The translations under genes and the position numbers were made by a program. The notes under the pieces were generated by a model, which saw nothing but the letters and a program-made list of their open reading frames with translations, made no database searches and was not told the DNA's origin. Shown piece by piece: positions 594 to 34,907 of a stretch of 64,000 nt of DNA (its first letter is position 1; every line of letters starts with the position of its first letter). The stretch is from Candidatus Microgenomates bacterium. Lineage in GTDB: Bacteria > Patescibacteriota > Microgenomatia > Daviesbacterales > UBA10151. The stretch covers positions 1,328 through 65,327 of the forward strand of contig JACOYE010000009.1 of NCBI GenBank assembly GCA_016182045.1. Direction: 5' to 3'.

Positions 594-788
594 ATGAAAC
601 AAGCAAAAATTCCCACAAATATCTTTAATAAATATCCTGGCAAAAGGGTGGCTATTGTCGAAGGAAAAGTGATCGCCGCATCTTTTGATGCTACTGTTGC
701 TTATGAATCTGCCAAAAAGAAATATCCCAATAAAAAAATTAGCATTTTTGCAGTTCCCCGAAAAGAAGACAAGTACCTCCTGGTATGA
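594..788 (+). CDS. DUF5678-like small protein
   Basis: KYPGKRVAIVEGKVIA motif; overlaps the next gene by ATGA. Confidence 0.7.
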   Translation: MKQAKIPTNIFNKYPGKRVAIVEGKVIAASFDATVAYESAKKKYPNKKISIFAVPRKEDKYLLV

Positions 789-1162
789 TTTTCCCCTATA
801 TTGATAACGAGCCTATTGTTCCGCTTGAAATTCAAACAGAGAATAGAGAATGGATTGAATTCCATGCTTATATAGATTCTGGTGCAGGCTATAGTGTTTT
901 CCATTCAGACCACGCGGAGTTGTTGGGTTTAAAGCTTGAGAATGGAAGAAGAGTTTACTTTACTGTTGGTGATGGTTCACAAATTCCCGCTTATGTTCAC
1001 AAAGTCAGTGTAAAGTTTGCAGGGAAAAAGTTTGAGGCACAAATAGCTTTCTCCTCCAGTCTGGGAGTAGGTACTAATCTCTTGGGTCTTGTTTCATTTT
1101 TTGACGAATTTTCATTCTGTTTTCATCACTTCAAGAAGTACGTTGAAATTAAGCAAAGATAA
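785..1162 (+). CDS. retropepsin-like (clan AA) aspartyl protease
   Basis: AYIDSGA catalytic motif and C-terminal LLG motif. Confidence 0.8.
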   Translation: MIFPYIDNEPIVPLEIQTENREWIEFHAYIDSGAGYSVFHSDHAELLGLKLENGRRVYFTVGDGSQIPAYVHKVSVKFAGKKFEAQIAFSSSLGVGTNLLGLVSFFDEFSFCFHHFKKYVEIKQR

Positions 1163-1266: not shown

Positions 1267-1413
1267 TTAAAATTTGGAATAACTTTTAATCAAGCTCACT
1301 GTTAGTTCATCGTCTGATAAGGCACGTTTAAGAATACTCTTTAATTTAGTGTTATTTCTCTTATATCTTTTAGTTGGTTTACAAAGACCGCAAGTAGATT
1401 TAGAAACTATCAT
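1267..1413 (-). CDS. 48-aa basic CxxC protein (not in ORF track)
   Basis: MIVSKSTCGLCKPTKRYKRNN...SKF*; its ATG overlaps the TGA of the upstream HTH gene (ATGA). Confidence 0.45.
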   Translation of the reverse strand: MIVSKSTCGLCKPTKRYKRNNTKLKSILKRALSDDELTVSLIKSYSKF

Positions 1414-1688
1414 GTTAATTGAATTTTTAATTTTAGGTTTAGAGCTGAAGCTACTTTTTGTATAAGCCCAATTGACGGGTTAGCACTCATACTCTCCAGC
1501 CTGGAAATAACCGCCTGGGTGGTATTTGCCCTTTTAGCCAGATCTCTTTGTGAGATCTTTTTATGCAGCCTGGCTGCAATAAGTGCTCTGCTGATTTGAT
1601 ACTCAGCCTCTGACTCTTCCCAAGCCTTTTTAAACTCGGGATCTTTTAAACTTTCTTTAAGATGCTGTCTGAATGTGTATATTTTCAT
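1410..1688 (-). CDS. XRE/HigA-type HTH antitoxin
   Basis: ISQRDLAKRANTTQAVISRLE HTH; directly downstream of a RelE-like gene. Confidence 0.85.
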   Translation of the reverse strand: MKIYTFRQHLKESLKDPEFKKAWEESEAEYQISRALIAARLHKKISQRDLAKRANTTQAVISRLESMSANPSIGLIQKVASALNLKLKIQLT

Positions 1689-1712
1689 ATTTTGATGATA
1701 TCCTAAAAGATA

Positions 1713-2060
1713 TCACTTTGTCAAGCTGTCAACTTCTTTTAACCGCACCAAAGCCACATTAATTTCTTTTGTAGGAGTTTTATTAGTCTTTTTAACAAAA
1801 GCGTGGAGCAATAAAACTTGTTTTTCCTGGCGGGTTACATATAAAATCCTTACACTATCTTCTCCTAAAATTCTGATCTCCCAGAGTGGAGTTCCAGTTA
1901 ACTTTTTAATATGTGGGGTAACAGAAGTTAATCCATACTCTTCTATATTAGAAAAAATTCTTAAAGCTTTAACTTTAGCTTTCAAATTAACATCTAGAAA
2001 CTCTTTTACAGGACTGTTACCAGAAAGTAAAATATAGTAATTAACTTTCCATTTATCCAT
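1713..2060 (-). CDS. RelE/HigB-family (Gp49-like) toxin
   Basis: SPVKEFL...LWEIR...RILY...LLHAFVKKTNKTP motifs. Confidence 0.85.
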   Translation of the reverse strand: MDKWKVNYYILLSGNSPVKEFLDVNLKAKVKALRIFSNIEEYGLTSVTPHIKKLTGTPLWEIRILGEDSVRILYVTRQEKQVLLLHAFVKKTNKTPTKEINVALVRLKEVDSLTK

Positions 2061-2065
2061 TGAGA

Positions 2066-2218
2066 CTATTTCTTTTCTTTTTTTAAGTCTCTTGTACTTA
2101 TTAAGACTACTAATGGTTTTCCAGACCGGGTTATAAGAATCTTTTTTCTACCAAAATGAACTTCATTTAAAACCTCTGCAAAATTTTGTCTGGCATATTT
2201 TGCTGTAACAGTTTTCAT
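2066..2218 (-). CDS. Phd/YefM-family antitoxin
   Basis: MKTVTAKYARQNFAEVLNEV...ILITRSGKPLVVLIS; start moved to the ATG at 2218. Confidence 0.8.
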   Translation of the reverse strand: MKTVTAKYARQNFAEVLNEVHFGRKKILITRSGKPLVVLISTRDLKKEKK

Positions 2219-2284: not shown

Positions 2285-2314
2285 TTGACAAGTAGATTTA
2301 AATACAGTTATTAT
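2285..2314 (+). promoter_or_regulatory. sigma70-like promoter
   Basis: TTGACA (2285-2290), 18-nt spacer, TATTAT (2309-2314). Confidence 0.55.
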
Positions 2315-2323
2315 TAAAAAGAT

Positions 2324-2404
2324 ATGCTAGACATCAATGTTACATACGGGAATAGCAAATTGAGTAATTGTAAAATGAGTAATTTTCATTTCCTCAAAGA
2401 ATAA
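2324..2404 (+). CDS. possible 26-aa leader peptide
   Basis: MLDINVTYGNSKLSNCKMSNFHFLKE*, starting 9 nt after the -10 box. Confidence 0.3.
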   Translation: MLDINVTYGNSKLSNCKMSNFHFLKE

Positions 2405-2474
2405 TTCCCAATAAAATAATTTAATTGGTTAGTTAAATTAGGCCTAATTAACTCCCGGAAAGCGGTGAGTTAAT

Positions 2475-2660
2475 ATGTCAACAATAAGCGGTGGTAGAAA
2501 AGGTCGAAAGATTGGACGTAACAAAGCAAAGTGCGAAAGATACAGGCTTTCCCACCGCCGAGAGAAAAATAAAATTAGAAAAATTCTGAAGCATCTTAAA
2601 AAGCATCCAAATAATACGGCTGCATTAAGGAGGATTGAAGAATTAAAAAGAATAATTTAA
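2475..2660 (+). CDS. small Lys/Arg-rich protein, putative RNA-binding
   Basis: 61 aa, very basic, HLKKHPN motif; GGTGAG SD-like element inside a hairpin just upstream. Confidence 0.65.
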   Translation: MSTISGGRKGRKIGRNKAKCERYRLSHRREKNKIRKILKHLKKHPNNTAALRRIEELKRII

Positions 2661-2661
2661 T

Positions 2662-2781
2662 AACAGGTGGAGGGATAAGCTGACCCCCTCATAATTCCGC
2701 AAGGATAAGTAGAGTTCTGCAAGGTTGCGCGGCATCTAGGCGGGAAACTCCCGACGTAGGTCTAGTAACAACCAGCCTGTT
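2662..2781 (+). ncRNA. unclassified structured RNA A (~120 nt)
   Basis: ends pair (AACAGG 2662-2667 with CCTGTT 2776-2781); internal GAGGG/CCCTC, TCC-GCAA-GGA and CGGGA/TCCCG hairpins; GC-rich against AT-rich flanks. Confidence 0.5.
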
Positions 2782-2796
2782 TTGAAATTATTTTAA

Positions 2797-3021
2797 TGGG
2801 TAGTGGCTGAATAATCCGCTATGCAGGGATAAAGCGGCTTCTGCTCCGATGAAAATCGGAGAGCCAACGGCAAGTGCTGAGGCTAAACAGGAGTGCTGGG
2901 AGCCAAAATTGGTTTGACCTGAACCCAAACCGGTCTAACTACTGCAGAGGCTCCAAAACTTGGAAGAGTAGGTTAAGAAGAGGAGAGAAGTCTCTGAATC
3001 AAGACAATTCTTCCCTACCCA
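2797..3021 (+). ncRNA. unclassified structured RNA B (~225 nt)
   Basis: ends pair (TGGGTAG/CTACCCA); stems CCGCT/AGCGG, CTCCGAT-GAAA-ATCGGAG, GGAGCC/GGCTCC, ATTGGTTTG/CAAACCGGT; possible pseudoknot TGCAG(2822-2826)/CTGCA(2942-2946). Confidence 0.55.
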
Positions 3022-11481: not shown

Positions 11482-11551
11482 AAAGCTCACGTCGCGAGTT
11501 TTTTTGTGGGAGCATAGTCGAATGTATTTTCTTGTGCTATAATCTAACTAT

Positions 11552-11671
11552 TCTTTCGGGGTTTTGTGTAAGTCAAAATCGGTGGTAAAACTCCACGATC
11601 CCGCACCGTCTGGTGCAGGAACGAACTGGTGAAAATCCAGTAGCGACCGTACAGTCGGAATGAAAGAAAGA
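11552..11671 (+). ncRNA. FMN (RFN)-type riboswitch aptamer, variant
   Basis: TCTTTCGGGG...ATCGGTGGTAAA..CCACGA...CTGGTGAAAATCCAG..GACCGTACAGTCGGAATGAAAGAAAGA follows the RFN P1-P6 layout; extended -10 TGCTATAAT at 11535-11543. Confidence 0.8.
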
Positions 11672-11672
11672 C

Positions 11673-11738
11673 GTCGTCCCCGCGAAAGCGGGGAACCATA
11701 AAATAATTATATGGATCCCAGACTTGATCTGGAATGAC
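11673..11738. repeat. RPE/dRS3-like palindromic element
   Basis: GTCGTCCCCGCGAAAGCGGGGAACCA...TGGATCCCAGACTTGATCTGGAATGAC. Confidence 0.65.
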
Positions 11739-34495: not shown

Positions 34496-34550
34496 TTATC
34501 TTAGTATATAATAAACTGAAATTTTGGAGAATAATTGAAGTAAAAATAGT

Positions 34551-34907
34551 GCCTAGGAAGAGAGTAAGCCAGATTCTGTTTTCTCGCTTCGCGAAGCGAG
34601 TAGATGATCATTTATCTAATGCTCCTCATTTCGACTAGTTGGCGAGCAGCCTAAGTCGGTTCTAGGATTGCAGCGGGGAGGATTGCCCTTCGACTCGTCC
34701 CGATTACATCGGGACTCGCTCAGGGCTATAGCCCTTTGCTTATCGAATACCCTGTGGCTTGATCGTTTCACTCGGCGCCACCCGAATCGTCACTGTTGCT
34801 CTATACTCGCGGTCACCCGGTCTCGCCTTGCGGCGGACACCCTACTCTTTGCTGTCTGGACTTTCCTGTCCCGATTTAATCGGGACCGATCATCCTTCTT
34901 CCTAGGC
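34551..34907 (-). ncRNA. rnpB: RNase P RNA
   Basis: GGAAAGTCC and AAAACAGAATCTGGCTTA conserved regions; P1 GCCTAGGAAG/CTTCCTAGGC. Confidence 0.93.

Follow-up and report, generated by a model that had tools for sequence, protein, structure and literature searches.

The described RNAs closest to those considered here are manA, GOLLD and ROOL. As given in the available parts of the sources, manA has been put forward as a cis-regulatory element (a riboswitch candidate) of cyanophages and marine sources, and its pseudoknot is weak (PMC2864571; also PMC9964418); manA RNAs associate via intermolecular kissing loops, L3-L8' among them, into pentamers, decamers and a 60-mer icosahedral cage, with monomer models deposited for two tested variants (10.64898/2026.07.01.735769). 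GOLLD and ROOL are likewise phage or prophage RNAs of unknown function, often near tRNA islands, and form RNA-only cages via kissing loops; the same preprint describes in loop L9.3 of the OLE RNA a self-complementary tetranucleotide with AGCU among its variants (10.1101/2024.12.08.627333, in the portion available). The accessible portions of these preprints give no function for manA, ROOL or GOLLD cages. Two further systems bear comparison: the non-coding RNA arrays of UG27 reverse transcriptases, which are variable arrays of ~150-nt structured units that are gained and lost (10.64898/2026.09.22.753630, available in part), and the autoregulation of YefM/Phd antitoxins, in which YefM represses via paired TGTACA cores (PMC1802561, likewise in part).

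Here we analyse a locus in a 64,000-nt stretch of contig JACOYE010000009.1 (this whole stretch is the window), from a genome of 0.9 Mb that is 92.4% complete. The initial annotation had proposed a ribonucleoprotein system, in which a promoter and leader precede a gene for a small basic protein and two closed, unclassified RNAs. The features of the locus, in window coordinates, are these:

2066-2218, minus strand: solo Phd/YefM-family antitoxin gene, short at 50 aa and divergent from the RNAs (Pfam PF02604, E 1.3e-13)
2256-2282, no strand: operator-like box, TGTACA (2259-2264) plus TGTATA (2277-2282), near-invariant, between two divergent promoters
2285-2314, plus strand: sigma-70-type promoter of the cassette, with 11 of 12 consensus matches; TTGAC is likewise placed in other operator-bearing loci
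2348-2409, plus strand: AT-rich leader hairpin (fold, -14.7 kcal/mol; by-eye comparison with L011, L027, L036, L166 and L168)
2447-2474, plus strand: hairpin covering the ribosome-binding region of the ORF (fold; by-eye counterparts before ORF homologues in L073, L074 and L223)
2475-2660, plus strand: 61-aa Lys/Arg-rich protein with HLKKHPN, of an unnamed viral family, with a basic N-terminal tail and three predicted helices
2662-2781, plus strand: unit 1, a 120-nt five-way-junction RNA of no Rfam family (covariation), with a self-complementary RGYU loop and a GNRA hairpin
2782-2796, plus strand: AT-rich spacer between units 1 and 2 (alignment), variable and able to carry an insertion
2797-3021, plus strand: unit 2, a 225-nt multi-junction RNA with a manA-like 5' half (covariation) and a loop-loop pairing of 2822-2826 with 2942-2946

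The promoter that had been claimed is borne out, with TTGACA at 2285-2290, an 18-nt spacer and a TATTAT ending at 2314, this being the best of seven sites in a promoter scan where 3.3 were expected. The Lys/Arg-rich ORF was recovered as described, and the GC-rich non-coding DNA reported after it is visible as a step in composition, from 22-27% GC over 2201-2450 to 45-53% over 2651-3000. By eye, the leader hairpin resembles the leader that precedes a second unit-1 subtype in relatives; in locus L156 the inter-unit spacer has ~150 nt inserted. A variable hairpin domain lies 5' of unit 1 in L021, L026, L029, L040, L055 and L155-L158, and this domain and the long leader hairpin before the second unit-1 subtype are possibly further RNA units. 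The cassette is flanked in the window by a DUF5678 and aspartyl-protease gene pair (594-1162, plus strand) and by a Gp49/RelE-like and HTH pair (1410-2060, minus strand).

Both units close on themselves within the limits first assigned to them (z = -2.39 for unit 1, with 4 of 200 shuffles equally good; z = -3.81 for unit 2, with 0 of 200), and covariation supports both structures directly. In unit 1 (16 sequences) both sides vary in 14 of the 23 named pairs, and the covariation score is 0.498, against 0.171 in shuffled alignments and at most 0.142 in slid controls. In unit 2 (25 sequences, 13 bacterial and 12 from phages) both sides vary in 49 of 57 pairs, 97.8% of cells are paired and the score is 0.756, against 0.235 shuffled and at most 0.138 slid. 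The counts lean favourable, each structure having been drawn from the very alignment on which its pairs were counted and the unit 2 alignment having been fitted to a model; the margin over the controls is large. That units 1 and 2 are real RNA families we regard as virtually certain. The first loop of unit 1 has an RGYU core, AGCU at 2678-2681 in the window, that is self-complementary over at least 4 nt in all 23 copies, which were found across 22 of the 23 sources searched; the palindrome varies by transitions only, which is weak evidence for loop pairing. The likeness to L9.3 of OLE extends to this four-base motif, with no wider similarity and no OLE match in Rfam. In unit 2 the loop-loop pairing connects the loop after the UGACUGAAUA junction with the first 3' stem; of the 25 sequences, 11 have U-A as its outer pair and 10 have C-G, with 4 left unpaired there, and this pattern supports the pairing directly, covariation being equally compatible with contacts within and between molecules. 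Natural mini-forms of unit 2, consisting of the closing stem with only the first or only the last hairpin, are present at L005:1485-1535 (minus strand) and at a joint of 2791-3003 in run X2.

Neither RNA belongs to a described family, as the initial annotation had judged by eye. No Rfam family reached its gathering score at the units, five weak E-value matches lay far below cut-off, and scans of the window and 15 homologous loci gave nothing near cut-off for them, housekeeping RNAs included; unit 1 resembles no Rfam family. Likenesses to the SRP Alu domain and to the c-di-AMP riboswitch are unsupported by Rfam. The literature searched holds no description of the unit motifs or of the cassette; an IMG/VR-wide screen may hold them unnamed, and five motif strings were absent from the portion of its supplementary files searched, the alignment archives excluded (PMC10690425, available in part).

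Individual candidates were set aside as follows. A tRNA or tmRNA identity is contradicted by the lack of a T-loop or CCA end and of any ARAGORN or Rfam tRNA match. For 6S there is no RF00013 match and both units are multibranched; for SRP RNA there is no Rfam match (RF00169 covered by the window scans only) and no Ffh was found in the 92.4%-complete genome. Y RNA/Ro60 was rejected with no YrlA-type Rfam match and no TROVE gene, and GOLLD, ROOL, OLE and raiA with no match in whole-library Rfam scans. At 120 and 225 nt the units are also far shorter than GOLLD (many >800 nt) and than ROOL, which is about 580 nt long. RNAs associated with reverse transcriptases (retron, UG27) were rejected since PF00078 was found neither in the genome nor among 38 neighbouring proteins scanned, and the cassette further differs from UG27 arrays in that its two units are different families, not repeats. 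A type III toxin-antitoxin system does not fit units that differ in family, lack tandem repeats and have varying neighbours.

The genome nevertheless yielded no large SRP RNA, Ffh or 6S at 92.4% completeness, and this would favour identifying the units as a housekeeping RNA, SRP or 6S, that has diverged in Patescibacteria. Against it, about 3% of the class carries the RNAs and none was seen in a sample of 150 further genomes of the phylum; they decay in some lineages and are found in phages. The tmRNA (contig C11), SmpB and RNase P are present elsewhere in the genome, the last at 34549-34905 of the window, in agreement with the rnpB placed earlier at 34.5 kb; this is a class A RNase P RNA with a long insertion, on the minus strand. 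The patchy distribution largely refutes the housekeeping reading, to which we give hardly any credence.

One described RNA does show signs of kinship with unit 2. In L185 the manA model (RF01745) aligns from end to end (positions 1-192) with unit 2 exactly; the score is 19.4 bits, the cut-off 55.2, and the E value 0.0042 when 271 nt are searched and 0.32 for 21 kb. This is the sole match, with none for the window, L029, L215, L157, L158 or eight other phage loci. Because 19.4 bits were reached by one member and the window and 12 others gave no match, unit 2 is not a manA member, and a distant relationship is moderately probable. At high posterior, manA and unit 2 of L185 share the closing stem, the UGACUGAAUA junction (kept in A11 and with one mismatch in the window), the next hairpin and the multibranch domain; manA and unit 2 also have in common two 3' stems, occurrence in phages and a loop-loop pairing, which by Rfam consensus helix numbering we infer to correspond to L3-L8' as named in the available part of the manA preprint. 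Unit 2 differs in having two rather than three multiloop hairpins and a longer 3' half (76 nt unaligned), which does not correspond to that of manA in the L185 alignment. It is, moreover, a stand-alone gene on either strand with no constant downstream gene, whereas manA lies in the 5' UTR of metabolic genes, and its hosts are groundwater Patescibacteria and uncultured phages, whereas those of manA are cyanophages and Photobacterium. By analogy we predict, tentatively and with slightly less than even confidence, that at least one of the units self-assembles.

Invariant single-stranded nucleotides are concentrated at junctions, as would be expected if unit 2, and perhaps unit 1, were instead a monomeric ligand-binding RNA whose intramolecular pseudoknot encloses a small molecule and which serves as a riboswitch-like sensor or as a signalling-nucleotide sponge; the listing of manA as a riboswitch candidate with a weak pseudoknot (PMC2864571, in the available part) points the same way. 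However, neighbour comparison showed no constant gene downstream, a terminator scan found none on the plus strand, and the phage copies lie on either strand, often with a promoter-like site of their own, which counts against cis control and not against a sponge acting in trans. We consider ligand binding of this kind unlikely as the explanation of the locus.

The two units have separate lives in phages. A strict 20-mer and a strict unit-2 pattern retrieved 0 viral contigs, and looser patterns succeeded: 12 of 32 matches to the first were real unit 2 copies (96-165 bits), and of 17 matches to a second, 14 were tested (three being contigs already confirmed) and 12 were real. Unit 2 is thereby known from 12 distinct phage loci, with no unit 1 near it in any of them. 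Three unit-1 patterns gave 16, 35 and 3 matches on viral contigs, the real ones being confined to the same two near-identical phage contigs, in which unit 1 lies downstream of terminase genes; unit 2 was found in neither of these fragments, which are 18% and 28% complete. A large terminase subunit is encoded within 3 kb of unit 2 at 7 of the 12 phage loci, in 6 of them at E <= 1e-12, a threshold that none of 16 chance-match control loci reached; this proximity is suggestive only, the test proteins having been hand-picked and several of the phages being related. Since unit 2 lies on the same strand as the terminase gene in some loci and on the opposite strand in others, it is not the leader of one gene, and its placement fits a stand-alone gene; TTGAC is found 30-61 nt upstream of it in 6 of 12 phage loci. 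Cultured phages gave no match to the ORF or to either RNA.

The tRNA-array link raised in the initial annotation was met with twice, unit 1 lying inside the tRNA-array contig L072 and unit 2, on one occasion, in a tRNA array of G664, a complete phage of 101 kb, where it follows a tRNA by 20 nt. (A unit 1 match in G664, best E 0.117, was left out of the counts.) This position, with the closed ends and the pseudoknot, is what might be expected of ribozymes, self-cleaving or processing, by which neighbouring tRNAs or the ribozymes themselves would be released, yet there is no Rfam ribozyme match, and no tRNA lies near 11 of the 12 phage loci or near the bacterial loci checked; a ribozyme is in our view very improbable. 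Directly 3' of unit 2 in G664 (L223:3215-3360) is a tRNA-like sequence split by an insert of ~100 nt and uncalled by ARAGORN.

In bacteria the two RNAs form a patchy pair. Covariance models of units 1 and 2 match the same five of 151 class genomes, side by side, and no other genome among 151 phylum genomes; in the family to which a divergent carrier belongs, one of 81 genomes matched. When 60 relatives were searched at the DNA level, the RNA part alone was matched, at 85-91% identity. Among 22 non-redundant bacterial loci, both units are intact in 13, two have unit 1 with a damaged unit 2, five have unit 1 only (one with two copies), one is cut by a contig end and one has a unit 2 with 50 nt deleted; the decayed copies include L005, L049 and L055. 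On GTDB the unit-1 pattern gave 35 matches, 14 of them real on inspection, of which seven carry the titles Daviesbacteria, Levybacteria, Blackburnbacteria, Roizmanbacteria, Microgenomates or Patescibacteria and seven that of Gammaproteobacteria (L021, L022, L026, L037, L043, L046 and L049); the latter titles are probably wrong, four of these records matching loci of genomes in the family of the window. The host is accordingly a probable Microgenomates-type Patescibacterium. The second unit-1 subtype is nearly identical between genera (L010, L027, L036, L037, L047, L166 and the first copy in L011), and such conservation suggests recent transfer or strong constraint. We read the locus, with considerable confidence, as a phage-related accessory cassette, modular in its make-up and patchily distributed in one bacterial class. 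Near the insertion site a thioredoxin-reductase-like gene and a nickel superoxide dismutase-like gene, so labelled on our assumption from its HCDIPCG motif, recur in L005, L010, L011, L027, L036 and L175.

The most constant partner of the RNAs is the divergent solo Phd gene with its operator, which the initial annotation missed. Membership of the Phd/YefM family is clear (PF02604, 50.9 bits against a cut-off of 29.8). Ten of 95 family genomes have the gene, at 11 places in all, and unit 1 lies behind it at all nine places that have DNA beyond the promoter, the other two being cut by contig ends. Ahead of TTGAC, 16 of the 22 bacterial loci (15 by pattern, one a variant seen on inspection) carry a box with TGTACA and TGTAYA cores, and six are without it. 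The arrangement shares with YefM/Phd autoregulation a Phd_YefM Pfam protein and two TGTAYA cores by its promoter; it differs in the ~50-aa length of the protein, in the varying genes that follow it and in the divergent promoter that drives the RNAs. The spacing of the cores is 18 bp, against the usual 12 bp, and there is one 18-bp case in the part of PMC1802561 available. By this analogy, control of the cassette by Phd through the TGTACA box is likely. One of those two is a second solo Phd gene in the present genome, which with its operator and TTGACA is cut off by the edge of contig C6 (last 70 nt; L175); the RNA part belonging to that promoter was not found in the assembly.

Toxin-type genes adjoin many other copies of the cassette, among them PIN, YafQ-RelB or RelE, HicAB, HEPN-nucleotidyltransferase, Fic and PaaX/Cas2-like genes, an adjacency uncorrected for the toxin density of these genomes. 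Phage tRNA islands have been proposed to counter RNase toxins and anticodon nucleases. The RNAs might accordingly be decoys or RNA antitoxins that absorb or inhibit the RNase toxins of neighbouring modules, or anticodon nucleases, a proposal in keeping with the antitoxin fold of the regulator and the occurrence of both units in tRNA arrays. However, the toxin family varies from locus to locus, several of the toxins adjoin protein antitoxins of their own, and the units are without the tRNA features named above. We hold the decoy proposal to be improbable.

The 61-aa protein belongs to a large viral family of 809 clusters at 50% identity; its Atlas clusters are 93-100% viral among members with a record, and PHROG 18475 is assigned to 52 of 116 members. 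Its model has a pLDDT of 85.8, and the search for relatives of that model gave no Foldseek match at E <= 0.001, the best structural Z being 5.2; LUZ24 gp4, at Z 5.1 with a sequence E of 0.33, is no more than a lead. The loose likeness to uS15 noted earlier is marginal: it concerns a short helix-turn stretch at about residues 33-60, with profile E values of 0.19-0.91 and weak Foldseek rows to ribosome chains at E 6.7-9.5. The protein may bind RNA.

The initial annotation had this protein as the dedicated partner of the RNAs. Here 1 nt separates the stop codon from unit 1 on the same strand, and the same order, stop codon then unit 1, recurs with a 63%-identical homologue in L072, where unit 1 was matched at nhmmer E 3e-8 before that locus entered the model; in G664 the ORF lies ~0.7 kb before unit 2 in one tRNA array. 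These cases, the basic character of the protein and its weak uS15 profile matches would suit a ribonucleoprotein. On the other side, the ORF is missing from 21 of the 22 bacterial RNA loci, among them that of G097, which carries both RNAs, and its profile matches one of 401 class genomes, the present one, leaving 400 without it. In the DNA around 51 loci of ORF homologues, unit 1 was found once and unit 2 not at all, and the ORF was present in one of five unit-2 phages tested, two near-complete ones lacking it. tRNA genes flank the ORF homologue in 10 of the 51 loci, so residence in tRNA islands, common to the ORF and the RNAs, explains their co-occurrence.

The closed, covarying, unclassified RNAs of the original claim stand, and the dedicated protein-RNA system is not supported. 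A dedicated partnership now seems unlikely to us, and what survives is a facultative ORF-RNA link (L072, G664). The protein is an optional passenger that the RNAs do not need; phage tRNA islands are the common habitat of ORF and RNAs, which were probably captured together here. Exact 481-nt contigs covering 2262-2742 are present in two groundwater runs, which may be the source of the genome, so the ORF-RNA junction exists in both assemblies; in each run the ORF segment is on one exact contig, and other contigs skip 368-430 nt between the promoter and unit 1.

We rate the units as phage structured RNAs of the manA/ROOL/GOLLD type. As a whole, and with a little less than even confidence, our preferred reading is of captured phage RNA genes in a cassette held by Phd, with unit 2 a manA-like RNA that self-assembles by loop-loop kissing. 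Independent phage RNA genes would have passed from phage to bacterium and been captured behind an antitoxin-type switch. Phd would repress at the TGTACA box, and loss of the antitoxin under stress would relieve this repression, whereupon the units would be transcribed together and trimmed to two closed RNAs. Rings or cages might then be built as the unit 2 loops, and the palindromic loop of unit 1, pair between molecules; in late infection or stress they might serve as a scaffold or sink in the conflict between phage and host. In its most specific form, which we put forward as a speculation with little weight behind it, the units are phage-born cage-forming RNAs that ultra-small Patescibacteria have domesticated: a stripped-down antitoxin would silence the array until stress or infection, and RNA-only shells would then form, with the viral peptide as optional cargo or clamp. 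If true, self-assembling RNA cages would for the first time be seen in regulated use by a cell, and the roles of manA-, ROOL- and GOLLD-type cages would become accessible to genetics.

The present results add two well-supported families missing from Rfam, unit 1 being without any known relative, and define a large uncharacterised family of viral basic proteins, often in tRNA arrays. They take a manA-like fold out of 5' UTRs and place it in genes of its own, close to terminase genes and in a tRNA island, and point to the capture of such RNAs by bacteria whose genomes measure 1 Mb, under what looks like a dedicated regulator. With its short length, its many natural variants and deletion forms, a regulator and an optional protein, such an RNA is a tractable object of study.

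Some smaller observations concern the surroundings of the basic-protein gene. A minigene (RBS, ATG, one to three codons, often with Thr second, and a stop) precedes it in 8 of 17 loci checked, at most 95 nt upstream of the ORF homologue (L072, L073, L074, L092, L097, L098, L114 and L223, mostly tRNA-array loci); none precedes the ORF of the window. At L015:3174-3262 and in L089 the ORF homologue continues into a short element that resembles tmRNA; by eye it has the two tRNA-like ends but no room for a tag frame, and ARAGORN does not call it. Elsewhere in the window, an FMN riboswitch lies at 11548-11675 on the plus strand.
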